In this document: positions 20,268 through 38,960 of the stretch, piece after piece
Position numbering within the stretch: position 1 is the stretch's first letter
Layout: each line of letters begins with the position of its first letter
Assembly (NCBI GenBank): GCA_002841695.1
Contig: PHAN01000002.1
Coordinates: forward strand, 90,807-154,806
Reading direction: 5' to 3'
From: Elusimicrobia bacterium HGW-Elusimicrobia-1
Lineage (GTDB): Bacteria; Elusimicrobiota; Endomicrobiia; PHAN01
DNA length: 64,000 bases
The notes under the pieces: model-generated
The model's database searches: none
What the model saw: only the letters and a program-made list of their open reading frames with translations
What the model was told of the DNA's origin: nothing
Position numbers and translations under genes: made by a program

Positions 20268-20274
20268 AAAAAGG

Positions 20275-20332: not shown

Positions 20333-20352
20333 TATTTCAACGGAGGAAAAAA

Positions 20353-21253: not shown

Positions 21254-21277
21254 AAATCGTAAAAGACCGGAGGGAAA

Positions 21278-22627
21278 ATGAAAAAAATAAGATTAATGCG
21301 ACCGTTAGGGCGAATAGCAATCCCTCGTTTCACTCGGGACAAGTTTCGCCTGCTACTTGTTTCCTTACTTTTTGCTGTCTTTGTCGGTGGTTGCGTCCGG
21401 AAGGCAAAAGAGCCGATTGCCGATGGCGTCAAATTTCTCACCATCTGGCAGACGTACAATAACGAGGAACACGATGTGTTTCTCAAGGTCGTCTCCGAAT
21501 ACGAAAAGAATAATCAGGGCGTGAAGATAAAAGTTCAGCGCATACCGTGGGATCAGCACGTCACGAAAATAAAAGTAGCGATGATAACGCATACGGTGCC
21601 CGACATCGCGCGGGTTGACCCTGCTTTCCTGCCGCGGCTCGTGAGGTCGCGCTCGGTCATCGACTTGAGTGATTACGGCGCGGACAGAATCATCGGAGAT
21701 CTCGTACCCGCTGCGGCGCAGGCGAACGTCTTCCCCGAGTCGTTCTTCGTCCACGGCTCGACGTCGTCGCGCAAAAGGATATTCGGCCTTCCCGATCAGA
21801 CGACCGGCGTGGCGCTTTTTTATAACAAAAAACTCTTCGCCGATGCCGGGTTCGCGCGCGGGCCTGCGACGTGGGAAGAATTCGTCAAATACGCCAAAGC
21901 CCTCACGCGCGACCTCGACGGCGACGGTCGCGCCGACCAGTTCGGCTTTGCGGCGGACCTTTCGCTGTGGTTCACATTTCCGTTTTTTAACACATACGGT
22001 GTGAAATTCATCAGCGACGACGGAAAAACCTGTCTGCTGGACTCTTTGGCGGCGCGCGAGGCGCTTCAACTTAAAGTGGATCTCTACGCCAGGCACAAGG
22101 TCGAGGCGGGCGCCTGGCAGGCGGGCGCGATAAGCCCCGACACCGGATTCATTAACCGCAAATACGCGATGATATTTACCGGCCCGTGGAACCTCAAAAG
22201 ATTCAAGGACGCGGGCATTCCGTTCGGCGTTTCGCTGATACCGCGCGGACCCGCCGGTTCGTCGACAAACGTCGGCGGATCGAGTATGGTGGTATTCAGA
22301 ACATCCCGCCATCCCGACGAAGCGTATAAGTTTCTCATGTATCTTGTCTCGCCGGCGACGCAGAAAAAGTGGGCGGAGGCGCTGAGTCAGATTCCCGTCA
22401 ATATCAAGGCATATCCGATGGTGAACGTTTCCGCGCTGCCGGAACTGAAAATATTCATGGAGCAGATGAAGACGGCCGTGCCGCGCCCGAAGGTTCTCGA
22501 CTATGACGAACTCGAAAGCATAATGAATGCCGAGATGTACACCGCGCTTTCGGGACAGAAAACCGTCGAGCGGTCGCTCAAGGACGCCGTCGAGGAAATC
22601 AACAAGAGGGTGTTGAATCTGGAATAA
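21278..22627 (+). CDS. Extracellular solute-binding lipoprotein of sugar ABC transporter (family 1, MalE-like)
   Basis: SD CCGGAGGG; lipobox-like LLFAVFVGGC; 449 aa, typical size and composition of SBP_bac_1. Confidence 0.75.
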   Translation: MKKIRLMRPLGRIAIPRFTRDKFRLLLVSLLFAVFVGGCVRKAKEPIADGVKFLTIWQTYNNEEHDVFLKVVSEYEKNNQGVKIKVQRIPWDQHVTKIKVAMITHTVPDIARVDPAFLPRLVRSRSVIDLSDYGADRIIGDLVPAAAQANVFPESFFVHGSTSSRKRIFGLPDQTTGVALFYNKKLFADAGFARGPATWEEFVKYAKALTRDLDGDGRADQFGFAADLSLWFTFPFFNTYGVKFISDDGKTCLLDSLAAREALQLKVDLYARHKVEAGAWQAGAISPDTGFINRKYAMIFTGPWNLKRFKDAGIPFGVSLIPRGPAGSSTNVGGSSMVVFRTSRHPDEAYKFLMYLVSPATQKKWAEALSQIPVNIKAYPMVNVSALPELKIFMEQMKTAVPRPKVLDYDELESIMNAEMYTALSGQKTVERSLKDAVEEINKRVLNLE

Positions 22628-22628: not shown

Positions 22629-22772
22629 TTAGGGTCTAGGGTTTAGTAAAATGAATAAAAATATAGAAAAGACAGGGTTTAGAAAGGCAGGGTTTAGGGT
22701 TCAGGGTTTAGGGGTTAGGATTTTTGTTTTAATTTTTTTCTATACCCTAACCCCTAAACCCCATGCCCTGCT
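22629..22772. repeat. Leader palindrome P3 (second copy), overlapping start of 22651..23760
   Basis: gttagggtctagggtttagtaaaATG...cagggtttagggttcagggtttaggggttagg...ctataccctaacccctaaaccccatgccctg. Confidence 0.75.
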
Positions 22773-23760
22773 TTTCTCCGCGCCGCGTCACACCATTACC
22801 GTCGACGGCGATTTATCCGAGTGGGCGTCCGACGAAACAAGAGTCGCCGATTCCGCCGACTCCGTATGGGACCCGGGCGCCGGCAAAAACGAGATAAAAA
22901 ATCTCCGCGTCACGTGGGATGCCGAGGCGCTTTACGTGGGCGTCGAGGGAATGGCGACGGACAAAGGTATCCTGTTATATCTCGACAGCGGGCGCGGAGC
23001 GGGTTATTCCGATTTGCGCGAAATAAAAACGTGGAACCGCCGCGTGAGCTTCGAAAACTTTGCGCCCGATTTCTTCTACGGCGCGTGGGACGGCTCCGAC
23101 GGCAATTTTTACAGGTTGAGTTCTTCGTGGAGCGCCGAGAACGTAAGTTCAAAGTGTTCGCTGAAAAACTCTAAAACTTCGGCCGCGGCGGGGTGGGAGA
23201 TGAAGATTCCTTTCGACCTTCTTTATTCGCGCGGGAACGCCGTCGATACCGGGGCGCGCATAAAGATATTCGCCTCCCTTGCCACCGGCGACATAGGTTC
23301 GGCCGCGTCCGGAGATTACGGCTATCTCGGCGGTGACTGCGCGCCGGACAACGAATTGACCGGACTCGGCGACGCCCTGATATCAAATTACGCGCAAGTC
23401 GTCGTCGATTCCGACGGCGACGGCCTGCCCGACGACGCTTTTGCGCGCGCTGCGCTTTCCTTCAGAGAGGTGTCTCTTTCGGAGGTTAAGTTTGCGCCCG
23501 CGCTTCACTCCTTGACGATTTTGCGCGTCGAGGTCACAAAAGAATCTTCGGTCTCGGCGGAAATCTACGGCCTCGACGGAAAAAAAATCAGGACGCTTTC
23601 GGCACAGACCTCCGCCCAAAATTTTGTCCTGAGTTTTTCGTGGGACGGCCGGGACGATTCGGGCGCCGATGTCGCCGGCGGCGTTTACATAATCAATCTG
23701 CGCGCGTCTTCGCTCGACGAAAGCGCGCGTCTTAATAAGGCCGTCGTTGTCATAAGGTGA
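22651..23760 (+). CDS. Secreted protein with CBM9/DOMON-like N-terminal domain and C-terminal FlgD-Ig/T9SS-like domain
   Basis: N-terminal HTITVDGDLSEW...LRVTWDAEALYVGVEG (homologous to 13306 and 40565 N-termini); C-terminus SAEIYGLDGKKIRTL...WDGRDDSGADVAGGVYIINL...VVVIR. Confidence 0.7.
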   Translation: MNKNIEKTGFRKAGFRVQGLGVRIFVLIFFYTLTPKPHALLFSAPRHTITVDGDLSEWASDETRVADSADSVWDPGAGKNEIKNLRVTWDAEALYVGVEGMATDKGILLYLDSGRGAGYSDLREIKTWNRRVSFENFAPDFFYGAWDGSDGNFYRLSSSWSAENVSSKCSLKNSKTSAAAGWEMKIPFDLLYSRGNAVDTGARIKIFASLATGDIGSAASGDYGYLGGDCAPDNELTGLGDALISNYAQVVVDSDGDGLPDDAFARAALSFREVSLSEVKFAPALHSLTILRVEVTKESSVSAEIYGLDGKKIRTLSAQTSAQNFVLSFSWDGRDDSGADVAGGVYIINLRASSLDESARLNKAVVVIR

Positions 23761-23876: not shown

Positions 23877-24752
23877 TTGCCGAACTGTGAACTTTTAACT
23901 ATGGACTTTTTCTCTCTTTTCTCGTCGGTGCAGAAATTCCCTGTCTTTGTCTGTGCCGCAATATTCCTCGTTTTATGCCCGACGGACGCGCTGGCCGCTT
24001 TCATCCGTTTCCCGTCCTCAGCGAGGGTGTTGTCGCTGGGCGGCGCCTCGGCGGCGCTTGCCGACGACGCATCGGCCGTGCGCTCCAATCCCGCGGGGAT
24101 GGTTCAATCGGATGGAATCGCTCTCGCCTGCGGCTACGCCGATATCTATGCCGCCGATGGATTGTACCGCGCCGAGACGGCTGCGGTTTATGCGCGCGGC
24201 GCCTCGGCGTGGGGCATCTCGTGGGAGAAACTCGGACTTCAGGGGACTTATGACGAGGACGTCGCGGCTATCGCCTTCGCAAGGCAAATCTCCGACAGTA
24301 CGAGCGTCGGGGCGGCGGTTTCTTCTTACAAAAGTGAAGTCAAGAATTTTACGACGCCGTTTTATAAAGGCCCACGCTCGGCCGCGGGCTTCGCCCTCGG
24401 CGTTTTATGGCAGATTTCCGACGACATACTTGCCGCCGCCGTCGCCGACAACATCAACGAACCGCAGCTTGCCGACGGCGAAAAACTAGCTCAATCGGCG
24501 CGGCTGGGCTTAAGATACCATCCATTTGCGAGCGGTCTTGTAACAGCGGAACACGAAACGGCCGGCAATGTTTTGCGCTGCGGATTTGAGGTCGTCATCG
24601 GCGGAATGCTGCCGGTGCGCGTCGGCGTCGAGCGTGGCCGCCCGACCTTCGGATTCGGCATAGAAACAGGTTTTATCTCGATTGATTTCGCCCTGCTTTC
24701 CGACCATAATCTGGGTCAACTCTACCAGACGGGTGTCAGGATGAAATTATGA
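23877..24752 (+). CDS. Beta-barrel outer-membrane protein, PorV/PorQ- or PorP/SprF-like (start may be ATG 23901)
   Basis: Motif SLGGASAALADDASAVRSNPAGMV near N-terminus, same family signature as 12258..13250. Confidence 0.6.
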   Translation: MPNCELLTMDFFSLFSSVQKFPVFVCAAIFLVLCPTDALAAFIRFPSSARVLSLGGASAALADDASAVRSNPAGMVQSDGIALACGYADIYAADGLYRAETAAVYARGASAWGISWEKLGLQGTYDEDVAAIAFARQISDSTSVGAAVSSYKSEVKNFTTPFYKGPRSAAGFALGVLWQISDDILAAAVADNINEPQLADGEKLAQSARLGLRYHPFASGLVTAEHETAGNVLRCGFEVVIGGMLPVRVGVERGRPTFGFGIETGFISIDFALLSDHNLGQLYQTGVRMKL

Positions 24753-26314
24753 AAAAACCGCTTGCGCGCCTCATTCTGGCGGTTATGGCGCTCGGCTTTG
24801 TCGATGCCGCGGCTTGGGCTTCGTCTGTCGGAATCGGCGGTTATTACGAAACCGAATTTTCTTGGCGTAAGGAATCGGATTTCGAATGGAATCTCGCCTC
24901 GCCAAAGCATTACCTGCAGACAAAGTTTTGGGCGAATCCGCGACAAGGTGTGGAAGTATATTCGCAGTTTTCGGCGCGCACGAACGAAAGTTGGAACGAA
25001 AAATATTTTTTCGAACTTGAGCGCGGGTGGGGAAAATGGCGGTTTGGTTCGGGCGAGACATTTTTTCTGCTTAAAGAAGAAAGACACTGGATCGACTCGC
25101 CGCTCTTACGAATATCCGAACAATCGAAGGCCTCATACTTCAACGACGGCTCCGGCGCGCGGATCAACTTTTTCGGCGCGGGGACACCCTTGAGGGCAAG
25201 CGTTGTTTTAACAAAGTCCCTGCCTAAAGCGCGGCAGGAGTGGTACGGCTCTTATTTTGACGAAAACGCGCATAATTTCGTCGCACGCCTTGGCGCGGAT
25301 TTCAGGACACCTATCGAGGCGCTCGACAGAATATCCGTCGGAGGATCTTATCTGAATTCGGCGCTGATACAGCAAAAGTACGATTCCGCCGGCAATTTTC
25401 TCAATGAGCACGCGATGATAAACGACGTCATTTCGCTCGACGCCAAACTTTCGGTTTTCGACGCGACATTGACGGGCGAATGGTCGGGTTCCCAAAAAAA
25501 AGGATCGGCGAACGACCCGCTTCCGTCGGAAAATCAGACGGCGTTCGCCGCCGAGTTGCGCGACTTAAACTTAAGGCCGCTGCGCCTGCAAACGCGTTTC
25601 TACGACTATGGGCCGGGCTATCGTTCGGAGCTGTCGCGCGCCTTCGGGCGGCTCTCCCGCGACGGAAACGACGCCGACAAAGAGTTCGGCCGCCGGGGAT
25701 ATTACTTTGAAACCGGCTATCTGTGGCCGAAAAAAATGATAACCTTCACGTACAAACGAAAATATAGAATGTCTGACTTCGATTACCTGACCAACAATCA
25801 GAATATCCGCGAGGATTATATTATTTACCGGGCCACAGAGACGTATACCGGTTCCTACGACGCTATCGAATCGCGGATAGATTTCGCCAACGGCATAAAA
25901 AACATCTCCGCCGTCGAGCTTTCCGGCGATAGACAAGGATCGTGGCCGGGGTTTCTCTTTGAAATTTCGGGCGATACGCGCGATGTTTATTCGCGCGTCC
26001 AGTTCAGGGTAAAGGACGCCGGCTCCGAAACGGGTCTTGGCGAAAGACACATCATCGGCGCCGAAGTCAGATACAACCTTTCCGATCATCTGCAGCTTTA
26101 TGCGCGCACGGTCTCGGTGAACGCGGCTAAACGCGGCAGAAACTGGTCGAGCGCTTTCTATCAACTTAGATATTTTATGGGATGGGACATCGAGGGTTAT
26201 GTTGAATACGGCGACGGCTGGCACACCGATTCGCTGTCGCACGACTCCGACATAACCGATTACGATCGCTCGCTCGTCGACGTGGTCAGGATACTTTTCA
26301 AGATTAACTTTTGA
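24749..26314 (+). CDS. Outer-membrane beta-barrel protein (unknown family; candidate glycan channel)
   Basis: ATGA start/stop overlap with upstream gene; signal peptide MKKPLARLILAVMALGFVDAAAWA; C-terminal ...RILFKINF. Confidence 0.55.
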   Translation: MKKPLARLILAVMALGFVDAAAWASSVGIGGYYETEFSWRKESDFEWNLASPKHYLQTKFWANPRQGVEVYSQFSARTNESWNEKYFFELERGWGKWRFGSGETFFLLKEERHWIDSPLLRISEQSKASYFNDGSGARINFFGAGTPLRASVVLTKSLPKARQEWYGSYFDENAHNFVARLGADFRTPIEALDRISVGGSYLNSALIQQKYDSAGNFLNEHAMINDVISLDAKLSVFDATLTGEWSGSQKKGSANDPLPSENQTAFAAELRDLNLRPLRLQTRFYDYGPGYRSELSRAFGRLSRDGNDADKEFGRRGYYFETGYLWPKKMITFTYKRKYRMSDFDYLTNNQNIREDYIIYRATETYTGSYDAIESRIDFANGIKNISAVELSGDRQGSWPGFLFEISGDTRDVYSRVQFRVKDAGSETGLGERHIIGAEVRYNLSDHLQLYARTVSVNAAKRGRNWSSAFYQLRYFMGWDIEGYVEYGDGWHTDSLSHDSDITDYDRSLVDVVRILFKINF

Positions 26315-26338: not shown

Positions 26339-28363
26339 ATGAAAAAGAAAAAAAATATCGCGTTCGCGAACAAGAATCATATGATCATCGCCTCGGCGGT
26401 TTTTGTAGCGCTTCTTGCGGTTTCTTCCGCCGCCGGTCCTTTGGCGCCGAAAGCCGTTCAGGGCGGCGTGGAATTCGCTTACGAAGCCGCCCGCGACGCC
26501 AAAAAGATTGCCGTGGCCGGTGAGTTTAATTCATGGAACCATGAAAAAAAATTTCTAAAGTACGACCCCGTCCGCGGACTCTGGACGACGGTTGTTGAGC
26601 TTGGCGAGGGAAGACACGAATATAAATTTGTCGTCGACGGAACGTGGCAGGAGGGCGCCAATCTCGTCGCCGAAGTGAAAAAGAAAGACGGACGGCTTGT
26701 TGTTGAGGAGCCCGCCTCCGCGCCCAATACGCCCTACTCGGCAAAGATAAATTTCTCGGGCAAGTTCGTCGCCGAACTCGGAGCGCAGTCCCGCCAACAG
26801 CGGGACGACTTCTCTTCCATGCCGCCCGTCAATCACGCGGACTTCGACTGGAATATAACCGCCTCGAAAGACGCCTCGGGCTTCGCGCGGCTTGAATATG
26901 ACGGCGACAAAACCTCGGGCAAACTCCTATTTAAACAGGGCCGGATAAGTTTCGCGCCGACGGGTTTCGAGACGTCGATGTATTACAAGCAGAAAGCGAT
27001 TCAGTTCGACGACCCTCTGCGCGCGACAGACAGGGCCGTGACGCTGAAATACGACGCCGTCGAGTTCTTCGATGAAACCAATCCGCATAAGGCGTTCGGT
27101 CTCTGGGAGCAGGCCGTCGCCGTAAAAACGGATTTTCTCGGCGGGGCCTTTTCCGCGTTTTATTCGGACATGCTCCGTCCGGCGACGTACTTTCACACTC
27201 TTGAAGACAACAGCGGACTTCGTTATGCGCGGAGTTTCAAATCCATCCCGTTGAAAATCGCTTTTACGACGAGGCGCACTCGCGGCGGATGGTGGCCGTG
27301 GGCGAACAGCGACAACAACTGGTTTCCCGATCCCGAAAAGCCGAACGGCTACTCATGGGACGCCGCGGCCAGAGGAAGCGTTGCGACCTGGTATAACGGA
27401 TATCTCAACGAAGATTTCATAGGCGTTGACGGAAAATTCGACTTTCTGCCCGGTGTCGCCCTGTTCGGTGAAACGGCGTCGGTAAAGAAAGAATTGAAAT
27501 CGCAAAAGATATCGGGGGGCAGCGCGCACGAAAAGACGTGGACCATCGAAAACGGCGCCGAGAGTATTTACGGCGTAAAATACTCGCGCGGAAAGATACT
27601 CTCGCTTCAGGCCTCGGCGTCAAGCCGGAACACAACTTTCACCCCGCCGCTTTATGCGGGCGAAACCTTCGCCGCCACCGGCTCCGGTTTTTCTTTGGCC
27701 GCGCGTCTGCGCGCCGGATCTTTCACTTTAGCGGCGGCGGGCTCGTCGCGAAAAAACTCGCGGATAGAAAAAATACTCCCGCTCGACATACATCCCTACG
27801 CGCGGCCTCTCGTCTATCAAGGTCTATTTCCGATGGAAGCCGCGTCCGTCGGATTTCTCGTCCATGCCGTCGAAGAGGAAAATGCCGTTATAAGCGCCGC
27901 GGAATATTCCGCTCCCGCGTTTTCCGTCGGAGCGAAAAGCAGAATATCTTCGCTTAAACTCTTGCCGCGATCCTACGCCGGCGGAATCTGGAATGTCAAT
28001 CCGTTCATCGCCGCGCCCGACGAAATCACGCTTTCCGAGTCGGCGCTCGATGCCGCCGTCAAAATTTGGCCGGATATTACGGTCGAGTCCGCGCTCAGAT
28101 TGTTCGCGTGGGACGATAAAAACGAAGGCGGCTTGAAAGCATACTCGGCGCTTTTTCTGGCGCTCAAATACGACTTCTCGAAAAATTCATACGTGCGGCT
28201 CGGTTGGGGGCTCGACCCCGAGGACACCGACGACGATATTCTCGCGGGATTTGACGCGCGGGAAAGCTTTTTATATAATCTGCGCGAAGCGTCGATTCTT
28301 GAAGCCGCGCGGACGCTTGAGTCGCTTCGGAGAATTTCCGTGCGTATGTTCGTGAGATTTTAA
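26339..28363 (+). CDS. Fusion of N-terminal CBM48 (AMPK-beta glycogen-binding type) domain to a predicted outer-membrane beta-barrel
   Basis: SD ACGGAG; signal peptide; CBM48 motif KKIAVAGEFNSWNHE...GRHEYKFVVDGTWQEGANLVA; 500-aa C-terminal region ending ...RMFVRF. Confidence 0.6.
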   Translation: MKKKKNIAFANKNHMIIASAVFVALLAVSSAAGPLAPKAVQGGVEFAYEAARDAKKIAVAGEFNSWNHEKKFLKYDPVRGLWTTVVELGEGRHEYKFVVDGTWQEGANLVAEVKKKDGRLVVEEPASAPNTPYSAKINFSGKFVAELGAQSRQQRDDFSSMPPVNHADFDWNITASKDASGFARLEYDGDKTSGKLLFKQGRISFAPTGFETSMYYKQKAIQFDDPLRATDRAVTLKYDAVEFFDETNPHKAFGLWEQAVAVKTDFLGGAFSAFYSDMLRPATYFHTLEDNSGLRYARSFKSIPLKIAFTTRRTRGGWWPWANSDNNWFPDPEKPNGYSWDAAARGSVATWYNGYLNEDFIGVDGKFDFLPGVALFGETASVKKELKSQKISGGSAHEKTWTIENGAESIYGVKYSRGKILSLQASASSRNTTFTPPLYAGETFAATGSGFSLAARLRAGSFTLAAAGSSRKNSRIEKILPLDIHPYARPLVYQGLFPMEAASVGFLVHAVEEENAVISAAEYSAPAFSVGAKSRISSLKLLPRSYAGGIWNVNPFIAAPDEITLSESALDAAVKIWPDITVESALRLFAWDDKNEGGLKAYSALFLALKYDFSKNSYVRLGWGLDPEDTDDDILAGFDARESFLYNLREASILEAARTLESLRRISVRMFVRF

Positions 28364-28367: not shown

Positions 28368-28796
28368 ATGGAAAAATATTCTGCGACAGACCGGATACAA
28401 TCGCGTCGGGCCGGCATAATTCCGGTCGCGGCGACGTTCTTCCTTGCACTCGCCGTATTTTCCGGCTGCGCCACGTTCAACATTATCCGCGACCGTATAG
28501 AGTCGCCCGTAATTGACGGCGCTAAGGTTGTTTTTTATTACGACTCCGATTCCGCTAAGAGCGTCTCGGTGGCCGGTGAGTTCAATGGATGGGAATATCG
28601 TCCCGAACAGCCGCGCGCGATAGTGATGAAAAGAAACGAAAAGGGGGGCGTCTGGCAGGCGTCGTCCGAGATATCTCCGGGCCGATATCAATATAAAATA
28701 GTGATAGATTATCAAACGTGGATTACCGATCCATATAACACCAACACAGTCGATGACGGAACCGGCAATCTCAACTCGCTTCTCGTCGTAAAATAG
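28368..28796 (+). CDS. Small lipoprotein with single CBM48-like domain
   Basis: Lipobox-like LALAVFSGC; SVSVAGEFNGWEY...GRYQYKIVIDYQTWITDPYNTNTVDDGTGNLNS. Confidence 0.65.
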   Translation: MEKYSATDRIQSRRAGIIPVAATFFLALAVFSGCATFNIIRDRIESPVIDGAKVVFYYDSDSAKSVSVAGEFNGWEYRPEQPRAIVMKRNEKGGVWQASSEISPGRYQYKIVIDYQTWITDPYNTNTVDDGTGNLNSLLVVK

Positions 28797-28842: not shown

Positions 28843-29859
28843 ATGAAACGCAGATTTGTGGTTGCGCTGGTTTGCGCTCTGACGGCGGCATTCGCCGTTT
28901 CTTCAGCCGGAGCGAAACTGAGGAAAGTCGGTTCGGCCGAGAGCGGCAAATCCGTCGAATGCGCTACGCGCGTTACCGGCGCGGGCGTCGAGTTCGTTTA
29001 CGAAAACCCCTCGGCGAAAAACGTCTTCGTGGCCGGTTCTTTCAACGACTGGAACTCTTCGCGCGACGCTCTTTCGAAAGATAAAAAGGGTGTTTGGCGC
29101 GCGACGCTGCCGTTGAAAACGGGAACGCATCAGTACAAGTTCGTCGTCGACGGCAACTGGATGGCAGATCCTTCCAATCCTCAAACCTCCGACGACGGCT
29201 TAGGCGGGAAAAACTCGGCTGTGGAAATAAAATCTGCGGCAGATGGAAAACCCGCCCCCGCAACCGCGGCGCCCGGCGCAGGCGGGCCGAAAGTTACGGG
29301 CGAGGGCGTTAGATTTGTCTATAAAAACCCCGCGGCGAAAAACGTCTTCGCGGCGGGCGAGTTCAACGCATGGAACGCGCAGGCCGATCCGCTCATAAGG
29401 CAGAAAGACGGAACGTGGCTGCTCGTCAAGAAAATCCCCCCCGGAAGATACAATTATAAGTTCATCGTCGACGGACAGTGGCTCAATGATCCCGTCAATA
29501 CCGCAACCTCCGACGACGGTTACGGCGGAAAGAACTCGGTTCTGGAAGTAGTCGCAGCCGCCGCGCCGTCGCACAAACTGTCGGCCGCGACGAGACAGAC
29601 CAAGACGGGGATAGAGTTCGTTTACGAAAATGCATCCGCCAAAAGCGTCGCAGTTGCGGGCAGTTTCAATAACTGGAGCGCCTCGTCGCACCGTCTCGAA
29701 AAGGATAAGTCGGGCATCTGGAAGACATCGGTTCCTCTGGGTAAAGGCAAATATCAGTATAAGTTTGTCGTCGACGGCGAATGGAAAGAGGATCCGTCGA
29801 ACTCCCAAAACTCCGAAGACGGCCTCGGCGGGAAAAACTCAGTCATCGAGGTTCGCTGA
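28843..29859 (+). CDS. Secreted protein consisting of three tandem CBM48-like glycogen/starch-binding domains
   Basis: Three internal repeats of VEFVYENPSAKNVFVAGSFNDWN...HQYKFVVDGNWMADPSNPQTSDDGLGGKNSAVEI (second and third copies at ~aa 150 and ~aa 250). Confidence 0.75.
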   Translation: MKRRFVVALVCALTAAFAVSSAGAKLRKVGSAESGKSVECATRVTGAGVEFVYENPSAKNVFVAGSFNDWNSSRDALSKDKKGVWRATLPLKTGTHQYKFVVDGNWMADPSNPQTSDDGLGGKNSAVEIKSAADGKPAPATAAPGAGGPKVTGEGVRFVYKNPAAKNVFAAGEFNAWNAQADPLIRQKDGTWLLVKKIPPGRYNYKFIVDGQWLNDPVNTATSDDGYGGKNSVLEVVAAAAPSHKLSAATRQTKTGIEFVYENASAKSVAVAGSFNNWSASSHRLEKDKSGIWKTSVPLGKGKYQYKFVVDGEWKEDPSNSQNSEDGLGGKNSVIEVR

Positions 29860-29901
29860 TATAAAAGAAGGGAGAAGTTTAAGAAGTAAGAGGCAAGAAG
29901 T

Positions 29902-30301: not shown

Positions 30302-32470
30302 TCAGAAAATGACTTCGACGGAAATTTCGTCGCCGGGCGCGACACGCTCGGCGTTTACCCGCGCGAAGTTAAAGCGGCTTTCAAGCGTTTCGCCGAATAT
30401 CTTGTTTGTCGTCGAGAACTCGGTTTTCTTCCCTTCGACGAGAACTTTCCTGGCTTTGCGCTTCCCTCCAAAAACCAGAAAACTGATTTCCTGCGTTTCA
30501 GGCGCCCCGTCATAAGAGCCGCCCTCCGCCGCCGATAACTTTATCAAGACCCTGCCGCCGCGCGAGCGCGCAATAACGCGTCTTTTAAGATACGCGCCGT
30601 TGTCGCAGGCGTTTGTGACGCCGTCGTCTTCGTAGTAGTCAAAAAACGTTTCGCCGCGCGACGGAAAAACGAGAAATTCAATATTTTTCGGCACGCCGAG
30701 CCGCCCGGCCGGCGCGGTCGACGGAATTATCGAGCCCTCCCGGGCGAAGAGCGCGATTTTGTCGATGGCGACGTCGATATGGCGCGAGCGTTTTCCTTTT
30801 ATTATCTCGCCGTCCTCAAGTGGTATCCACGTGCCTTCGGGGAAATATGTCATTCTCGTGGAAACCCTGCCCGGCGAGTAAGCGGGCGCGGCCATAAGCG
30901 AAGCGCCGATGAGGTACTGCTCCCTGTAATCGTAGCAGTTTGCGTCCCGCGGATACTCGACGTAAAGCCCGCGGAAAGGCGGCACTCCCGTTTCGTGGCA
31001 TTCGCGCGCCAAAGAGTAAAGATAAGGATTCAGCGCGTATCTCGCGCGGACGTATTTTTTGAAGATAGAAACCGCCTCTTCGGAATAATTCCAGGCGTCG
31101 CGGGACGCGCCCGACGAATGTGTGCGCAAAACAGGAGAAAAACATCCGAACTCTACCCATCTGATAAAAAGTTCCTCGTCTATATTTTTTCCCAGAAACC
31201 CGCCGATATCGTGCGACCAGTAAGCCGCGCCTATGTTCCCGCCCTGATGCGTGAATGCAATCTGGCGCTTTATCGTCTCAAAAGTCGAATATGTATCGCC
31301 GGAGAATTGTACCGGATATTTGTGGGAGCCGATACCGCCCCATCGTGAAAGTATCATCGCTCTGCGGCCGTCGCGGGCATTGGCGGCGGCTTCGTAGTAA
31401 AACCTGTTGAGCCACATCTGAGAGTGCAAGTCCATTATCCCGCCTGAAGCGCCCCAGCCGTCCACCCACCAGAAGTCGATTCCTTCGTCGAGAATTTTCG
31501 TGAATATCTTTTCCGACCACGCGCGCACATAGCGGTCGTCGTTCCACTGAACGCGGAAATCGCTTATATCGGGCAGGACTTTTTTTATTTGGGCGCGGCA
31601 GGGGTCGTCAGGGGGAAGCTCGTCCGAAACGCCGTAGCCGGGGTGGTCGTTGAGGCAGCATTTCACTCCGAGTTTTTTTAGATCCGAGATGAACCGCGCG
31701 GGATCGGGAAAGAACTCGGAGTTCCACTCGTAGCCGTTCCATCCGCATTTTCGCCAGTCGGTGTCTATGACGAAGACGTCCAGAGGTATGCCGAGTTCGC
31801 GGAATTTGTCGACGACGCCGAGGATATCATCGTGGCGGAACTTGTGCCAGCGCGAGTACCAGTAGCCGAGCGCCCATCGGGGTATCATCGGGATTTTCCC
31901 GAATAGTCCGATAAAATCGGCGAAGGCCTTTTTGTAGTCGGTTCCGCAGGCGAAGAAATACCAATCCTGAAAGTCGCTCGACGAGCGCTTTTTTATCCAT
32001 CCGGTTTTTTCGTCGCGCAGAAAATCGCAGTGGTTGCGGTAGACGAAGTAGCCGTTTTTCGAGACGAGGCCCGGCGTGAAGCTCTCGTAAATCTTGCCCG
32101 ACGGATATTTGTAAAGGTCGATGTGCGCGCCGCCGAGGTTTTCGGTGTCTTCGCCCCCCGGTTCGAATACACTCTCGCCCGAGAGCGCGCCGAAGACGCG
32201 GATTTTGAGGTTGCCTATGTCGAAGCATTTTCCGTCGGGAAGGAGTTCCAGCGCGAAGCGGCGGGTTTTGAGGGCGAACAGGCCGTTGGTTACAACCGAG
32301 TGGGGGACTTCCCCGCTGAAATTCGGTTCGAGTATCAGCGGATTTTCGTCGTCGAAAACTCCCTCCGCGGTGTATTCAAGCCGCAGCAGCGAGTCGGAGT
32401 AAACTGTGACGCGGTAGTTTTTGTCGACGAGATAAACCACCGGCGCCGAAGATATTTTGTGTATTTTCAT
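30302..32470 (-). CDS. GH31-family alpha-glucosidase-like enzyme, cytoplasmic (no signal peptide)
   Basis: 722 aa; motifs PRWALGYWYSRW, FWWVDGWG, SHDIGGF resembling GH31 signatures. Confidence 0.7.
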   Translation of the reverse strand: MKIHKISSAPVVYLVDKNYRVTVYSDSLLRLEYTAEGVFDDENPLILEPNFSGEVPHSVVTNGLFALKTRRFALELLPDGKCFDIGNLKIRVFGALSGESVFEPGGEDTENLGGAHIDLYKYPSGKIYESFTPGLVSKNGYFVYRNHCDFLRDEKTGWIKKRSSSDFQDWYFFACGTDYKKAFADFIGLFGKIPMIPRWALGYWYSRWHKFRHDDILGVVDKFRELGIPLDVFVIDTDWRKCGWNGYEWNSEFFPDPARFISDLKKLGVKCCLNDHPGYGVSDELPPDDPCRAQIKKVLPDISDFRVQWNDDRYVRAWSEKIFTKILDEGIDFWWVDGWGASGGIMDLHSQMWLNRFYYEAAANARDGRRAMILSRWGGIGSHKYPVQFSGDTYSTFETIKRQIAFTHQGGNIGAAYWSHDIGGFLGKNIDEELFIRWVEFGCFSPVLRTHSSGASRDAWNYSEEAVSIFKKYVRARYALNPYLYSLARECHETGVPPFRGLYVEYPRDANCYDYREQYLIGASLMAAPAYSPGRVSTRMTYFPEGTWIPLEDGEIIKGKRSRHIDVAIDKIALFAREGSIIPSTAPAGRLGVPKNIEFLVFPSRGETFFDYYEDDGVTNACDNGAYLKRRVIARSRGGRVLIKLSAAEGGSYDGAPETQEISFLVFGGKRKARKVLVEGKKTEFSTTNKIFGETLESRFNFARVNAERVAPGDEISVEVIF

Positions 32471-32644: not shown

Positions 32645-35083
32645 TCAGCGCGCAACGAGTATCATCGCCGATCCTGCCGGGATGTCCACGGACAACTTCG
32701 ATTTTTTTACTTTCATTAAGCGTGAGGGCTTTGCGACCCTGATTTTTTTTACGACGCGTCCGCCGTCGGCGCCGGGGGCGTCGAAGAGTTCGTAGCGCTT
32801 CTCGCCGAGGATGTCGAAGTACTCCGTTCCGTCGGGCGCGCCCGCGTCGAACGTGACGGCGCGGGAGGCGGCGGAATTGTTGACCGCGACAAAAATCCTG
32901 TCCGCGCCTCTTCTCCTGGCAAAGACGATAATTTCATTTTCGTCGTCGGCGAGCACACTCTCGTAAACGCCGGTATGGAGTTCCTCGCGCGTGTTATGTA
33001 TCGCGGAGAGTTTCCTGTAGTGCTCGTAAATATCGCGCATAAATATTTTATCTTTATCGTCGAACGCAAGGTCTTTCCATACCATAGGCTCGCGGCAGAA
33101 CGGGTCGTCCGAACTCCACATCCCGGCTTCGGAGCCGTACCATATCATCGGCGCACCGGGCAGCGCAAACTGCACAGCCGTCACTTTTTTGAGTTTTTCG
33201 TAGACGTCTTTCGACGGCCGCCCCTGCTTGTACGACGGGTTATAGTCGCCGGTGTCCGACGGATTGAGGCGGTTACCCTTGTCGTAGTGGCGCCCCGGAT
33301 TAGAAAGCATCGAGACGGCGCGGTCGGTGTCGTGGCTGTCGAAGAGATTCTGCTGGACGAAGTTGACCTGATAAGGATAAAGCGCCAAAAGCCGTTTTAT
33401 CTCCGAATCAAACTTCGAGGGCTTTATCCAGCCGTTGGAGAGCCAGTTGAGCGTCGTCTTGATAAAAGGATAGTTCATCTGCGCGTGAAAAAGTTCGGGT
33501 TTCAGCCATTCGGGGGATTCGTCCCATAATTCGCCCGAGATATAGGCGTCGGGGTTGATGGACTTGACAAGCCGCGACCACTCGACCCAGAAAGGCATCT
33601 TGACATTCTCGGGAACGTCTAATCGCCAGCCGTCTATACCGTCGGAAGGATCGCCGTCGCCGTTGGGATCCATCCAGCGGCGGGTGATGTCGAAGATGTG
33701 TTTTTTTGGGCCGGCGACGAGACCGTTTTCGTCTTCCCTGAATTCCGGCAGCCCGCCGAATCCCGCCCAACCCTCGTAGCCGCGGCCAGTGTGCGCTTCG
33801 CGCATGAATAATTCCCAGTCGGTGACACTGAACCAGTCGGCGTATTTCGATTTCCTGCCTTTTTTCTTGACGTCGTTAAATGCCCAGAAGTTATCGCCCG
33901 AGTGATTGAATACTCCGTCGATGATGACGCGAAAGCCCATCGCCTTGGCTTTTTTAAGAAAATCCAGAAAGAGCATGTCGGTCTTTGTCCATTTCCACGT
34001 GGCGGGATCATCCGTCTCGCCCCTGAGTTCGGCGATGTCGCCCTTGAATCCGAGATTGTCGTCTATGTGGCGATAATCCGAGGTGTTGTATTTGTGGTGC
34101 GATTCGGCTTTGAATACCGGCGTAAGATACAGCGCGGTCACGCCCATTTCTTTGAGATAATCAAGTTTTTCGACGAGTCCCTGAATGTCTCCGCCGAAGC
34201 GCCGTCCCCAGACGAAATCGTAGAAGCCGCCCTGCTCCGAGGGATGTTTCCTGGAAAAATCCCATGTCCACGGAAGCGAGCCGTCGGGATTGTTCGCGGG
34301 GTCGCCATCGCGGAAGCGCTCGGGCATTACCTGATACCAGACCGCGCCTTTCGCCCAATCGGGCGTCGCGAACTTTATTTTTGTCGAGGCAGTGAAAACC
34401 GTCCCGGCGGAGGGGTAAATTATCTTGGTGTTTCCGTCGGCCAGGGCAAACGAATATTTGAGATTTTGCGCGTCGCGGGGAATCTCGGCGAAAGCGCTCC
34501 AGTAGTCGAAGCCGAGATAGGTCTTTGTTTTTTCCATCGCAAAACGTTTGCCGCCGCCCGAGACGACTTCGGCGTTTTCGACGTCTCCGGCGAGCGCGCG
34601 AAGTTTTATCTCGGCAAGACCCTTCGTTATTACGTTAAAATATTCTATCTTGCGAGGATCGTGGCGCAGCGCCGCCACCGCGATGTTGTTGAGAATAGGC
34701 GCCCCGTATGACGTTCCCGTCTCACCGACGGCAATGCCCGAATTGAAACCTCCGAAGCCGTCTTCCTTTTTTAGGGCCGCGTCGGCCTTGGGGTCCTCCA
34801 TCCAGCGGTCGCCGTTGACGACGAGTTTGTATAAGTGGAGGCCTTCTTTGAGTTCGAGCTTCGCCTCGAATTTCCCGTCGGGCCGCCGGCGCATCAGGTC
34901 TTTTGAGGAATTCCATTGGTTAAACGATCCGACTACCGCCACGGAATTTACCGCCTCTCCGGGCCGGGGTTCATATAGAAAAGAGATTTTCTGCGTCGGC
35001 GCAATCACCGCCGACAGAGCCGTCGTCATCAACAGCGCGACGGAGAAAACCGCCGCGAAGAAACATTTTTTCGATGAAAACAT
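32645..35083 (-). CDS. Secreted GH13 alpha-amylase/neopullulanase-like enzyme with N-terminal CBM48-like domain
   Basis: Signal peptide MFSSKKCFFAAVFSVALLMTTALSA; CBM48 VAVVGSFNQWNSS...LHLYKLVVNGDRW; GH13 regions VIIDGVFNHSGD, GWRLDVPENV, YISGELWD, FDSHDTDR. Confidence 0.85.
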   Translation of the reverse strand: MFSSKKCFFAAVFSVALLMTTALSAVIAPTQKISFLYEPRPGEAVNSVAVVGSFNQWNSSKDLMRRRPDGKFEAKLELKEGLHLYKLVVNGDRWMEDPKADAALKKEDGFGGFNSGIAVGETGTSYGAPILNNIAVAALRHDPRKIEYFNVITKGLAEIKLRALAGDVENAEVVSGGGKRFAMEKTKTYLGFDYWSAFAEIPRDAQNLKYSFALADGNTKIIYPSAGTVFTASTKIKFATPDWAKGAVWYQVMPERFRDGDPANNPDGSLPWTWDFSRKHPSEQGGFYDFVWGRRFGGDIQGLVEKLDYLKEMGVTALYLTPVFKAESHHKYNTSDYRHIDDNLGFKGDIAELRGETDDPATWKWTKTDMLFLDFLKKAKAMGFRVIIDGVFNHSGDNFWAFNDVKKKGRKSKYADWFSVTDWELFMREAHTGRGYEGWAGFGGLPEFREDENGLVAGPKKHIFDITRRWMDPNGDGDPSDGIDGWRLDVPENVKMPFWVEWSRLVKSINPDAYISGELWDESPEWLKPELFHAQMNYPFIKTTLNWLSNGWIKPSKFDSEIKRLLALYPYQVNFVQQNLFDSHDTDRAVSMLSNPGRHYDKGNRLNPSDTGDYNPSYKQGRPSKDVYEKLKKVTAVQFALPGAPMIWYGSEAGMWSSDDPFCREPMVWKDLAFDDKDKIFMRDIYEHYRKLSAIHNTREELHTGVYESVLADDENEIIVFARRRGADRIFVAVNNSAASRAVTFDAGAPDGTEYFDILGEKRYELFDAPGADGGRVVKKIRVAKPSRLMKVKKSKLSVDIPAGSAMILVAR

Positions 35084-35288: not shown

Positions 35289-36392
35289 ATGGCTCAAGTC
35301 ATCATCAAAAATGTCTGGAAAAAATACGGGGACGCCGAAATCGTAAAAAATTTCAATCTTACGATAGCGGACAAGGAATTCTGCATTCTCGTGGGCCCGT
35401 CGGGCTGCGGCAAAACGACCACGCTTCGCATGATAGCCGGACTCGAAGATATTTCATCCGGAGAGATCCTCATCGGGGACGTTGTCGTCAACGGTGTGCC
35501 TCCGAAGGACAGAGACATCGCCATGGTCTTCCAGAACTACGCGCTCTATCCGCATATGAATGTGCGCGACAACATGGCCTTCGGACTGAAGCTGCGGGGT
35601 TATTCAAAAAAACTCATCGACGAGCGTGTCAACGAAGCCGCCGACATTCTCAACATAAAACATCTCCTGGCCAGAAAACCCAAGGATCTCTCGGGCGGTC
35701 AGCGTCAGCGCGTTGCAGTGGGACGGGCCATCGTCAGAAAACCTAAGGTCTTTCTTTTCGACGAACCGCTCTCCAACCTTGACGCCAAACTCCGCGCCCA
35801 GATGCGCGCGGAACTCAAAAAACTCCACCAGCGACTTCAGGCGACGATGATATACGTCACGCACGACCAGATCGAGGCCATGACGATGGGCGATAAAATC
35901 TGCGTGATGAAAGACGGCGTGATACTGCAGGTCGACGAGCCGATTAAACTTTATTCGGATCCGGTCGACAAGTTCGTGGCCGGCTTTATCGGCTCCCCGC
36001 CGATGAACTTTTTCGATTGCAAGGTGGCCGCGAAGGATGACGCGGTGTGGATATCCGAGGGTAGTTTCGATATTAAACTCTCCGCTAAATTCACCGCCGC
36101 GCTTAAAAATCTCGACGGTAAAATGGTTACGGCCGGCATCCGCCCCGAAGATATTCACGACAAACTCTTCTATCGCATAGGCCCCATGGACGGCAATATC
36201 TTCACCGCTACGGTGGACGTCATAGAGCCGCTCGGCGCCGAGATTTATCTGCATATGAACACCGGGAAAAACTCTTTCGTCGCAAAGGTTGATTCGCACA
36301 ACACCGCTAAGCCCAACCAGATTCTCGAACTCGTCGTCAATGTCGATAAAATAAAGATTTTCGACAAGGAAACCGAAACGGCGCTGGCTTGA
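35289..36392 (+). CDS. Sugar ABC transporter ATP-binding protein (MalK/MsmX/UgpC type with C-terminal regulatory domain)
   Basis: Walker A GPSGCGKTT, ABC signature LSGGQRQRVAVGRA, Walker B VFLFDEPLSNLD, H-loop YVTHDQ. Confidence 0.9.
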   Translation: MAQVIIKNVWKKYGDAEIVKNFNLTIADKEFCILVGPSGCGKTTTLRMIAGLEDISSGEILIGDVVVNGVPPKDRDIAMVFQNYALYPHMNVRDNMAFGLKLRGYSKKLIDERVNEAADILNIKHLLARKPKDLSGGQRQRVAVGRAIVRKPKVFLFDEPLSNLDAKLRAQMRAELKKLHQRLQATMIYVTHDQIEAMTMGDKICVMKDGVILQVDEPIKLYSDPVDKFVAGFIGSPPMNFFDCKVAAKDDAVWISEGSFDIKLSAKFTAALKNLDGKMVTAGIRPEDIHDKLFYRIGPMDGNIFTATVDVIEPLGAEIYLHMNTGKNSFVAKVDSHNTAKPNQILELVVNVDKIKIFDKETETALA

Positions 36393-36465: not shown

Positions 36466-36545
36466 GTAGTGTAGCCCTTTATGGGCGTTTCTTTATGGGC
36501 GTTTCTTTATGGGCGTTTATTGACGGGGACAAGCCCCTACACTAC
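36466..36545. repeat. REP-family palindrome plus 3 tandem copies of ctttatgggcgttt
   Basis: gtagtgtagccctttatgggcgtttctttatgggcgtttctttatgggcgtttattgacggggacaagcccctacactac. Confidence 0.7.
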
Positions 36546-36572
36546 ACCAAAATAGGAAGTAAGAGGCAAAAT

Positions 36573-38960
36573 ATGAACCCAAAAACAAAAACATTTTTGG
36601 CGGCTGCTTTTTTTTGTGTATCGACGATATCCGGTTTATTCCCGCCGCCCGCGCACGCGCGAGGGCTTGAAACGCCCGTCATCGACGTCGAGGCGGGTTC
36701 CGTCGTCGAGATGCCGCTTGATTTGTTCGTCGGCGCGCCCGTCGCGTCGGGGCCGGCGGTTACCAATATATCCGGCGCGAAGTCCGTCCGCGTTTCCGTC
36801 GCGCCAAAAAGATCCGCCCTCGTCATTTCGGCGCCGGCGGGTTTTTCGGGCTTCGACGCTTTCGTCGTCTCGGCTTCCTCCGACGGCAAAACGACTTTTT
36901 CGCGCGCCGTGGCGGTGAGGGTGACAGCGCCGCGCCGGACTGTTTTGCGCTATAAACCGGCAAAATCCGTCAAATCCGTCGCCGCGGCGGGGGACTTTAA
37001 TTCGTGGAATCCTTCCGCCTCGCCCATGACGGGGCCCGACAAGAAAGGTTTCTACTCCATTGAGCTTAAACTCGCCGCCGGAGAGTACAATTATAAGTTC
37101 GTCGTCGACGGACAATGGCTCGCCGACACGGCCAACCCCGCATCCGTCCCCGACGGCTTCGGCGGAACGAACTCCGTTGTTTTCGTAGGCGCGCCGCCTA
37201 AGTCCGGCCGATGGCACAGCGTTGTCGTCGACGATACAACCGCGCGCGTCGCGTATATCGCCGGCAAAGCCGCGCCGTCTTTCGACGCCGCATCGCTGTT
37301 GCTCGTCTCCGGCGATAAAATCCTCGCCCGCGGAGGCGACTATTCCGTTGATGAAACGCGCGGCGAAATAGCGATTAAACTCGCATCCCTCGGTTCGCCG
37401 CCCGCCGACGTCATGATATTGGCCCGCGATAAATCGGGTGCGATACTGAGCGGCTTCGTCGCCCGCTTTCCGTCGGACGACGGATGGAACGGGCGGCTGA
37501 TGTACTTCGCCTTCACCGACAGATTTCACAGCGGCTCGGCCGCCAATGACCGGCCATCCGGCGACCCTGACGTTGCGCCGGCGGCGGATTTTCGCGGTGG
37601 CGATTTTGCCGGCATCACAGAAAAACTCCGCGACGGCTATTTTGAGCGGCTCGGCGTGGGAGCGCTGTGGATATCGCCTCACTTTAAGAATCCCGACCGG
37701 CCATATATCGACGCTCTTCCTCCGCATAGAAAGTTTACCGGCTATCACGGCTACTGGCCGGTTTCTTTCGACGAGACCGACCCGAGATTCGGGACTATTG
37801 AAGAACTCCGCGAACTCGTGGCCGCGGCCCATAAGCGCGGCATCAAAGTCATTCTCGATATGGTGTTAAACCACGCCCACGAGGAAAATCCCGTCTACAA
37901 GAAAAATCCCGGATGGTTTTCAAAAATTACTCTGGCCGACGGCCGCAAAAATATCCGTCTTTTCGACGAGCGTCCGCTCGACACGTGGTTCGACGACTTC
38001 CTGCCCGACTTTGCCTACGAAGGTAATCCCGCCGCCGTCGAATATATGGTCTCAAACTGCCTCGATTGGATCAAGAAAACAAACTGCGACGGCTTCCGCC
38101 TCGACGCCGTCAAGCACGTGCCTATGGTATTCTGGACGGAACTCCGCCGCCGCATCCGCCGCGACATCGAAATCCCGCGCGGAGAAATGTTTTACCTCGT
38201 AGGAGAAACCATCTCCGGACGCGAAAAAATAATGGAATACGTCGGCTTTGATAAACTCGACGGACAGTTTGATTTTCCGATATACTGGGCGATAAAAGAC
38301 GTCTTCGCCTGGCAAACTAAAGGTCTCGACTATCTCGAACGCGAGAGCGGGAAATCAGCTTTGCAGTACGTCGGATCCATTCCGAGCCCGCTTTTGGGCA
38401 ATCACGACTTTGCCCGTTTCAGCGCTTTCGCCGACGGCGCGATACCTCCCGGTTCCAACGAAAAAGCGCGCTCGTGGGACAATCGCCCCGAAGTCAAAAA
38501 CCGCTCTACCTATCAAAAACTCCGTATGGCTTTCGCTTTTCTTCTCTCTGAGCCGGGCGTTCCCATGATTTATTACGGCGACGAAATAGGCCTCTCGGGC
38601 GCGGGCGACCCCGACAACCGCCGAATGATGAAGTTCGACAAACTCTCAGGCGACGAGCGCGAAACCCTCCAATATGTCGGCGCGCTGGCCGCGTTCCGCC
38701 GTGCCTCCAAGGCGCTCCGTTTTGGCGAGCGCCACACGCTTGTGTCGTCGGAAAACACCCTCGTTTACCTCAAAAATTATTTCGGCGAAACTGCCGTCGT
38801 TGCAATCAACCGTTCGCCCCGCCCCGCCGAAGTCAGCGTTGAACTTCCGCCGTTTTTCAAAAACCCCGCGTCCTTTGAAGACGTAGTAAGCGGCAAAAAA
38901 ATCCAACTCAAAAAGTTGCGCATCCCCCCGATGAGCGCCGTCGTCCTTCGCGGCATCTGA
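36573..38960 (+). CDS. Secreted GH13 alpha-amylase-family enzyme with CBM48-like domain
   Basis: Start at ATG 36573 (after SD aggaagtaagagg) preferred over track start 36495; signal peptide MNPKTKTFLAAAFFCVSTISG; CBM48 AAAGDFNSWNP...GEYNYKFVVDGQW; GH13 regions VILDMVLNHAHE, GFRLDAVKHVP, FYLVGETISG, LGNHDFARF. Confidence 0.85.
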   Translation: MNPKTKTFLAAAFFCVSTISGLFPPPAHARGLETPVIDVEAGSVVEMPLDLFVGAPVASGPAVTNISGAKSVRVSVAPKRSALVISAPAGFSGFDAFVVSASSDGKTTFSRAVAVRVTAPRRTVLRYKPAKSVKSVAAAGDFNSWNPSASPMTGPDKKGFYSIELKLAAGEYNYKFVVDGQWLADTANPASVPDGFGGTNSVVFVGAPPKSGRWHSVVVDDTTARVAYIAGKAAPSFDAASLLLVSGDKILARGGDYSVDETRGEIAIKLASLGSPPADVMILARDKSGAILSGFVARFPSDDGWNGRLMYFAFTDRFHSGSAANDRPSGDPDVAPAADFRGGDFAGITEKLRDGYFERLGVGALWISPHFKNPDRPYIDALPPHRKFTGYHGYWPVSFDETDPRFGTIEELRELVAAAHKRGIKVILDMVLNHAHEENPVYKKNPGWFSKITLADGRKNIRLFDERPLDTWFDDFLPDFAYEGNPAAVEYMVSNCLDWIKKTNCDGFRLDAVKHVPMVFWTELRRRIRRDIEIPRGEMFYLVGETISGREKIMEYVGFDKLDGQFDFPIYWAIKDVFAWQTKGLDYLERESGKSALQYVGSIPSPLLGNHDFARFSAFADGAIPPGSNEKARSWDNRPEVKNRSTYQKLRMAFAFLLSEPGVPMIYYGDEIGLSGAGDPDNRRMMKFDKLSGDERETLQYVGALAAFRRASKALRFGERHTLVSSENTLVYLKNYFGETAVVAINRSPRPAEVSVELPPFFKNPASFEDVVSGKKIQLKKLRIPPMSAVVLRGI

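Follow-up and report, generated by a model that had tools for sequence, protein, structure and literature searches.

At positions 28843..29859 (plus strand) of the 64,000-nucleotide stretch of contig PHAN01000002.1 from Elusimicrobia bacterium HGW-Elusimicrobia-1 that was analysed here (the window), an open reading frame (ORF) encodes an exported protein of 338 residues that contains three tandem CBM48 domains. From its sequence, the identification of this tri-CBM48 protein as a non-catalytic, trivalent binder of alpha-glucan (starch, glycogen or maltodextrin) is well supported, and it would exert this binding within a starch-use system. The main interest of the protein lies in the conserved gene cassette to which it belongs, which encodes three outer-membrane barrels and apparently serves several poorly studied bacterial phyla in the uptake of starch-like sugars. 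We propose, with about even chances of being right, that it is an accessory subunit of this outer-membrane cassette, which catches alpha-glucan at the periplasmic face and hands it off for the barrels.

Domain architecture and binding residues of the tri-CBM48 protein

The ATG start of the gene is preceded at 7 nt by GGAGG, and the protein is identical to an NCBI entry named 'hypothetical protein CVU77_01425 [Elusimicrobia bacterium HGW-Elusimicrobia-1]'. The N-terminus, MKRR-FVVALVCALTAAFAVSS-AGA/KLRK, reads as a classical Sec signal with a signal peptidase I (SPase I) site and without a canonical lipobox. The signal peptide covers residues 1–24 (28843..28914, plus strand), as delimited from the sequence and an alignment of orthologs, and a basic motif of the 'AKLKK' type just past the cleavage site is kept in the closest orthologs. 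Cys11, a conserved cysteine within the signal peptide, was considered as part of a lipobox. It was rejected in this role, since the residue at -1 is a non-canonical V, F or I and the AxA site downstream of it is canonical.

Three CBM48 repeats could be delimited by Pfam and by internal alignment at residues 45–131 (28975..29235), 151–238 (29293..29556) and 252–338 (29596..29856), all on the plus strand. The protein terminates with the last residue of repeat 3, and signal peptide, repeats and short linkers account for all 338 residues. The Pfam families AMPK1_CBM (E 3.6e-50, 168.6 bits versus a cut-off of 26.8) and CBM_48 (E 8.5e-31, 106.6 bits versus a cut-off of 22.4) each match in three stretches; the same stretches are overlapped by X25_BaPul_like at 64.4 bits, below the CBM48 scores, and weakly by CBM53. 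Pfam identified no catalytic family in the protein, and no match to Alpha-amylase; neither is there a C-terminal sorting domain (Por_Secre_tail or CHU_C), the protein ending at its last CBM48 residue. Pairwise identity between the repeats is 48–61% at the protein level and 60–66% at the DNA level. A preliminary description of this DNA had reported three CBM48 repeats behind a signal peptide, no catalytic domain, and a single-CBM48 lipoprotein as the neighbour, all of which is borne out by these profiles and by those described below.

Residues W100, K126, W133 and N150 of AMPK beta1 are critical for glycogen binding (PMC4032982). Each repeat of the tri-CBM48 protein has equivalents of these four residues, which are invariant across orthologs. 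The same residues were found in four other CBM48 domains of the locus, namely those of the lipoprotein, of a barrel fusion and of two GH13 enzymes, and seven CBM48 modules lie within about 12 kb of the locus. In PDB sequence searches the repeats matched the solved CBMs of AMPK beta1 and beta2 (1Z0M, 2F15) with E values of about 1e-11 (9.9e-12 for repeat 1 with the AMPK beta2 CBM) and 28–37% identity. Further matches include 5OT1, SEX4, LSF1 and GlgB, with a 'type II pullulanase' and branching-enzyme CBM48s among them, the whole list ranging from E 1e-11 to 1e-4. Judged by these matches, the modules are ordinary CBM48s of the AMPK-beta type. The repeats match carbohydrate-binding folds by profile and by sequence similarity to solved structures, and the conserved W/K/W/N residues, the PDB matches and the position in an alpha-glucan operon support the earlier suggestion that the protein is likely a dedicated multivalent, non-catalytic binder of starch or glycogen.

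A conserved six-gene cassette with three outer-membrane barrels

The tri-CBM48 gene is the last of six plus-strand genes, in the order w369 - w291 - w521 - w674 - w142 - multi-CBM48. The first, w369 (22651..23760), encodes an exported protein of 369 residues with a C-terminal domain (CTD) of the type IX secretion system (T9SS) type, resembling FlgD_ig, CHU_C and Por_Secre_tail; it scores 28.7 bits on FlgD_ig (Pfam), its orthologs score 30–37.6 bits on CHU_C, and PorU/Por_Secre_tail-like matches were obtained with NCBIfam. The adjoining w291 (23877..24752, 291 residues) is a small outer-membrane barrel similar to PorV, PorQ and FadL, as indicated by colinear orthologs, by NCBIfam PorV_fam (E 7.8e-10, but under the curated cut-off) and by a weak Pfam match to Toluene_X. 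It is likely that w369 is a surface component held by this PorV-like barrel. PDB sequence searches with w369 and w291 gave nothing useful besides FlgD-like Ig domains. Residues 46–62 of w369, 'HTITVDGDLSEWASDE', contain a DG-x-L-x-E-W motif that, without profile support, we take to recall CBM9/DOMON-like carbohydrate-binding domains. The N-terminal region of w369 is shared with a 702-residue paralog at 13306-15414.

Two large barrels follow. The first, w521 (24749..26314, 521 residues), is an outer-membrane beta-barrel of about 24 strands with an MtrB-like fold, which ends in ...KINF and matches no Pfam family. The second, w674 (26339..28363, 674 residues), consists of a signal peptide, a CBM48 domain (residues 33–123) and an outer-membrane barrel of about 22–24 strands that ends in ...VRF; its structure model is of moderate confidence (pLDDT, the predicted local distance difference test score, 62.7), and the strand count is ambiguous beyond strand 17. 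No Pfam family other than the N-terminal CBM48 was found in w674; Plug and TonB_dep_Rec gave no match, and CBM48 takes the N-terminal position. A C-terminal aromatic residue, Phe, is kept in all orthologs of both large-barrel families (...VRF, ...INF). The two families are not detectable paralogs of each other (probability 0.6% in a profile-profile comparison of the family alignments). Between w674 and the tri-CBM48 gene lies w142 (28368..28796, 142 residues), a lipoprotein with a single CBM48 domain (Pfam CBM_48, E 7.7e-10) and the lipobox VFSG-C34, which is kept in seven orthologs. Cys34 is followed by the tether motif C-A-T-[FL]-x-I-[IV]-[RK]-D-R-I, and lipobox plus tether motif are conserved across eight loci.

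Locus context and blastp comparison showed the cassette to be colinear and orthologous in nine other loci besides the window. Homologous loci, labelled L, derive from Elusimicrobia JACRDL01 (L001/L007), HGW-Elusimicrobia-2 (L002/L009), Candidatus Eisenbacteria JADLBL01 (L003), two long ENA contigs (L004, L013), a metagenome-assembled genome (MAG) of Endomicrobiia (L005) and a MAG labelled Ignavibacteria (L006); L008 (partial) and L010 are also cassette loci. A contig scan with the w521 alignment gave just six loci, owing to narrow peptide patterns, and about 25 clear members of the barrel family were picked out from an exhaustive representative search, where they were swamped by CBM48 arrays because the search profile included the CBM48 domain. 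Next to the cassette there is in every case a GH13 gene with CBM48, and in most cases there are MalK/ATP-binding cassette (ABC) genes as well. The last cassette gene encodes 2, 3 or more CBM48 repeats depending on the locus, the barrel in L010 is without CBM48, and Eisenbacteria-type loci have an additional gene of the CarboxypepD_reg type ahead of the multi-CBM48 gene. The literature searched yielded no account of CBM48 arrays that stand alone in bacteria, nor of the present barrel cassette.

In L002, a Y1 transposase gene is inserted within the cassette, between the barrel genes. In L006 (JBGFRZ010000077.1) the full cassette is 40–57% identical to that of the Elusimicrobia window, and the GH31 protein 58%; either the contig was mis-binned or the locus as a whole was transferred laterally.

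Which side of the outer membrane

The preliminary description had placed the tri-CBM48 protein at the cell surface, which is probably not right. Its most likely location is the periplasmic face of the outer membrane, for which there are several indirect lines of evidence. In w674 the CBM48 domain precedes strand 1 of the barrel. Both termini of BAM-assembled barrels are periplasmic, as seen for the BamA POTRA domains, the plug of TonB-dependent transporters and the LptD N-domain. In the model of w674, the first 16 inter-strand connections alternate between long ones at odd positions (6, 7, 37, 8, 32, 5, 9 and 37 residues) and short ones at even positions (4, 5, 2, 5, 5, 3, 4 and 3 residues), the pattern to be expected of a barrel whose first strand begins on the periplasmic side.

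Domain fusions point in the same direction. In P0041 (L014, 178-1680), a multi-CBM48 lipoprotein, repeats 2 and 3 are separated by an inserted TonB_C domain (69.7 bits versus a cut-off of 24.6). Modules of the TonB_C type reside in the periplasm and dock on barrels of the outer membrane. The P0041 gene occupies the multi-CBM48 slot of the cassette, in the same position as P0063; before it lies an ortholog of the L013 gene of the CarboxypepD_reg type, and after it a GH13 gene whose product is 73% identical to that of L013. The combination of multi-CBM48 with TonB_C is an unusual one. Another cassette member, P0066 of L004, has a marginal match to DUF2092, a 'predicted periplasmic protein' domain.

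In L001, the gene next after the cassette GH13 (13344-16022) encodes a histidine kinase whose first extracytoplasmic loop, between transmembrane (TM) segments TM1 and TM2, is made up of two CBM48 domains with their W/K/W/N residues intact. This sensor loop is followed by further TM segments and a HAMP-PAS-HisKA-HATPase arrangement, and by its domain order the kinase is a predicted periplasmic, CBM48-based alpha-glucan sensor; its sensor loop suggests that alpha-glucans of a size suited to CBM48 are to be expected in the periplasm of these bacteria.

Signal peptides and sorting domains were also taken into account. Orthologs of the tri-CBM48 protein alternate between Sec-only and lipobox signals, the latter being present in P0043, P0059 and the Eisenbacteria type; such switching is easy inside a closed compartment and was counted for the periplasmic side. 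The tri-CBM48 protein has no sorting domain although the window has several pairs of a CTD protein with a PorV-like protein, which look like this lineage's way of surface display.

These pairs are w369 with w291, 13306-15414 with 12258-13250, and 53078-56119 with 56269-58074. ORF 12258-13250 is a bona fide PorV/PorQ member (149.5 bits versus a cut-off of 90), and 9528-12215 also belongs among such sets of large exported and PorV-like proteins, of which those other than 12258-13250 show C-termini like those of PorZ, PorU or CHU_C. The phylum Elusimicrobia is not commonly linked to surface display of the T9SS type. No SprA-like translocon was seen in the window; a 2412-residue ORF (40565-47803) was considered for this role and ruled out, as it gave no such profile match.

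The best-placed alternative, which we hold to be possible but the less probable of the two locations, is that of a cell-surface binder of starch or glycogen, docked on the outer face of the barrel complex, where it would concentrate the polymer as a functional analogue of SusE/SusF. Its three modules parallel those of SusF, which has three, SusE having two (PMC9112005), and both 2- and 3-repeat versions occur here as well; the X25_BaPul_like score of the repeats fits the same comparison. Many homologs are lipoproteins with Ala/Pro-rich linkers and the sequence CAGGWRGG starting at the lipidated cysteine, which could be a tether for docking or export. Large plug-less barrels could let such a tether pass, and the MtrB-like w521 recalls barrels that hold a partner protein. 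Against this, the tri-CBM48 protein lacks any device for retention, including a lipid anchor and a sorting domain, the CBM48 fused to w674 is on the N-terminal, periplasmic side, the cassette orthologs include TonB_C and periplasmic-type fusions, and the CBM48 sensor kinase is a periplasmic one. Furthermore, Pfam searches of about 40 window proteins identified neither a TonB_dep_Rec, Plug or SusD family nor any SusC/SusD or TonB-plug gene, and the PDB sequence matches of the tri-CBM48 protein at E <= 1e-3 include no SusE/F chain.

Some points weigh against a periplasmic subunit. Arrays of carbohydrate-binding modules (2–6, and up to 18, repeats) classically grip polymers or granules outside the cell, as SusE/SusF do, and type II export or export through a barrel lumen leaves no sequence signal, which makes a surface location possible. 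The model of w674 is only moderately confident, with ambiguous strands after 17; the TonB_C fusion is one protein on a 3.7-kb metagenomic contig, and the DUF2092 match is marginal. The association of the tri-CBM48 protein with the barrels is deduced from gene order, and its location and its binding are both predictions from sequence.

A freely secreted protein, or an adhesin that binds alpha-glucan on cells, biofilm matrix or particles, uncoupled from uptake, is an unlikely reading. The tri-CBM48 protein is indeed Sec-only, anchorless and multivalent, and some distant multi-CBM48 proteins are encoded outside glucan-use loci, as in L012. The multi-CBM48 gene is, however, fixed as the last of the cassette in ten loci across phyla; in the window it is tightly spaced from, and on the same strand as, the importer genes, and in a locus of the PVC (Planctomycetes-Verrucomicrobia-Chlamydiae) type its homolog shares an operon with a LacI gene and two GH13 genes.

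We consider it very unlikely that the cassette exports or handles self-made alpha-glucan, as a capsule or periplasmic reserve, with the CBM48 proteins chaperoning the polymer outward: the locus contains no glycosyltransferase or glucan synthase, every enzyme in it is of hydrolase type (GH13 or GH31), and the ABC system is of the uptake type, with a solute-binding protein and MalK. That the gene is a functionless, decayed GH13 fragment minus its catalytic domain is scarcely tenable. CBM48 is normally N-terminal in GH13 enzymes, and GH13 genes do adjoin this one. The ORF, however, is undamaged and has a signal peptide and a ribosome-binding site, more than 100 homolog clusters consist solely of CBM48 repeats with nothing after the last one, and the binding residues are invariant across orthologs. 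This conservation effectively refutes decay.

Comparison with known systems

The closest functional likeness is to SusE and SusF of the Bacteroides thetaiotaomicron starch utilisation system, which are likewise non-catalytic, carry two (SusE) or three (SusF) tandem beta-sandwich modules, are encoded in a starch locus and aid an outer-membrane importer (PMC9112005). They differ in being lipoproteins of the cell surface that have X25-type modules and an additional Ig-like domain at the N-terminus, in having the TonB-dependent SusC/SusD as partner, and in their restriction to Bacteroidota. The tri-CBM48 protein has a Sec-only signal with an AxA/K SPase I site in place of a lipidated cysteine, modules of the AMPK-beta type and three unrelated barrels as neighbours, and is probably on the periplasmic side. 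Lipid anchor, neighbours and taxon fail to agree, as does the sequence relationship as far as PDB matches at E <= 1e-3 show, and the protein is not a member of the SusE/SusF family. The analogy drawn in the preliminary description may hold loosely, for a tandem non-catalytic starch binder that aids an outer-membrane importer, but does not extend to family membership.

Among solved structures, the glycogen-binding domain of AMPK beta (1Z0M, 2F15) is the closest relative of each repeat, with the ligand contacts kept. In AMPK beta it is a single cytosolic copy that serves as a sensing or scaffolding module of a kinase, whereas here three exported copies occur with nothing else attached. Plant proteins of the PTST/FLO6 type similarly use CBM48 without a catalytic domain and bring partners to alpha-glucan (PMC4339375); they are plastidial, combine a single CBM48 with coiled coils and act in starch synthesis instead of uptake. 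Sas6 and Sas20 of Ruminococcus bromii, which are non-catalytic and dedicated to starch binding, have several modules and cooperate with GH13 enzymes (PMC9112005). They are found in a Gram-positive organism, are dockerin-anchored in amylosomes, and have CBM26, CBM74 and X25 modules in place of CBM48.

In the LamB-MalE-MalS route of E. coli, an outer-membrane channel, periplasmic glucan binders and an amylase lead to MalFGK2, and periplasmic binding drives net influx. MalS is the periplasmic amylase of this maltodextrin route (PMC11828803). The route differs from the present cassette in having the 18-strand, trimeric LamB and the monovalent MalE, and no CBM48 arrays, CBM-fused barrel or PorV-like component.

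The wider family of CBM48 arrays

All of the 120 best homolog clusters (120/120) are pure CBM48 arrays, of which 5 have two repeats, 70 three, 39 four and 6 five. Their N-termini bear a signal peptide or lipobox, and almost none of them extends beyond the final repeat. The exhaustive representative search also brought up longer arrays, in which 6, 8 and as many as 18 stretches matched. Database names of the arrays are 'glycogen-binding domain-containing protein', 'isoamylase early set domain-containing protein' and, misleadingly, '1,4-alpha-glucan branching enzyme'. Many of these homologs are lipoproteins with a strikingly conserved 'LAGC-AGGWRGG' start and long Ala/Pro-rich linkers. In the Eisenbacteria-type multi-CBM48 lipoproteins, 'C-AGGWR[GN]G-xPP' begins at the lipidated Cys, and in the single-CBM48 lipoproteins orthologous to w142, 'C-[AS]-[TS]-L-[ND]-[FI]-V-[KR]-[DR]-R-[LI]-x-x-P' does so. 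Such motifs may be docking or sorting tethers.

The number of repeats is plastic. In the closest relatives (comparison with L005), adjoining genes are 86–91% identical, yet the array gene is shorter by exactly one repeat unit of 321 nt, repeat 2 being the one missing from this 2-repeat version. The junction of the length difference lies within a segment common to repeats 1 and 2, which is a signature of unequal recombination. Outside the cassette, a PVC-like contig (L011) has a 4-repeat homolog in a LacI-GH13-GH13 operon, and in L012 one distant multi-CBM48 homolog was found in an unrelated gene context.

The surrounding alpha-glucan locus

The genes surrounding the cassette form an alpha-glucan utilisation locus. 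Just upstream, and transcribed in the same direction, are importer genes (19326..22627) for two ABC permeases of the maltodextrin type (19326-21195, plus strand; Pfam BPD_transp_1 twice) and a solute-binding lipoprotein (21278-22627, plus strand; Pfam SBP_bac_1, N-terminal lipobox). From the permeases to the tri-CBM48 gene, the intergenic gaps on the plus strand range from -4 to 116 nt. Downstream follow a GH31 alpha-glucosidase (30302..32470, minus strand; Pfam) that is cytoplasmic, as judged from an N-terminus without signal peptide, and an exported GH13 enzyme resembling cyclomaltodextrinase/neopullulanase, with signal peptide and N-terminal CBM48 (32645..35083, minus strand; Pfam, NCBIfam). 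Next are a MalK-type ABC ATPase (35289..36392, plus strand; Pfam ABC_tran and OB_MalK) and a second exported GH13 enzyme with CBM48 and its binding residues (36495..38960, plus strand; Pfam).

At the other end of the window, a giant GH13 protein of at least 2097 residues (5-6298), cut by the window start, combines an alpha-amylase catalytic domain with CarboxypepD_reg and fn3 domains and is a candidate extracellular or surface amylase of the same pathway. It is followed by two ORFs of about 370 residues without family (6448-7584 and 7752-8849). Repeats with GAGACCGTTGAAAAA, resembling repetitive extragenic palindromic (REP) elements, form inverted pairs that flank the GH31 gene (29880-30260 and 32485-32620); six copies were observed versus a chance expectation of 0.22, and a REP-associated tyrosine transposase (RAYT) is encoded at 9080-9538 (111.8 bits). 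Genes for GGDEF diguanylate cyclases flank the cassette locus in three Elusimicrobia genomes (window 16623-19296, L001 1-429 and L002 19765-21005), which hints at cyclic di-GMP signalling tied to alpha-glucan use.

Proposed mechanism and implications

We envisage that surface parts, namely w369, seated on the PorV-like barrel, and possibly also the giant GH13 protein, would nick alpha-glucan and feed chains into the large barrels. The barrel-fused CBM48, w142 anchored in the outer membrane and the soluble trivalent protein would together catch the chains emerging from these barrels, and the three kinds of CBM48 could hold them against back-diffusion, as a binding ratchet or sponge. Captured chains would then be passed to, and cut by, the two exported GH13 enzymes, each with its own CBM48. 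According to the annotation, the cleavage products would proceed via the solute-binding protein and the MalEFGK-type importer to the cytoplasmic GH31 enzyme.

In its most specific form, which we put forward tentatively and regard as rather unlikely to hold in full, the tri-CBM48 protein would act in the periplasm as the soluble 'ratchet' subunit of a hitherto undescribed machine that imports alpha-glucan across the outer membrane. The other parts of this machine would be the two large barrels without a plug, one of which bears CBM48 where TonB-dependent transporters have theirs, the PorV-like barrel with its CTD surface protein, and the CBM48 lipoprotein. Such a machine would constitute a non-Sus, possibly TonB-independent route for long glycans in Elusimicrobiota, Eisenbacteria and related uncultured diderm phyla.

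The pure CBM48 arrays represent a very large class of uncharacterised proteins, which could also yield modular, tunable starch-binding reagents. The uptake of large glycans by diderm bacteria outside Bacteroidota, to which the SusC/SusD paradigm is inapplicable, is poorly understood, and the present locus offers a compact, conserved and testable alternative, with three barrels and a relay of CBM48 modules. Locating the arrays and defining their role would allow a better annotation of carbon cycling in candidate phyla of groundwater and soil.

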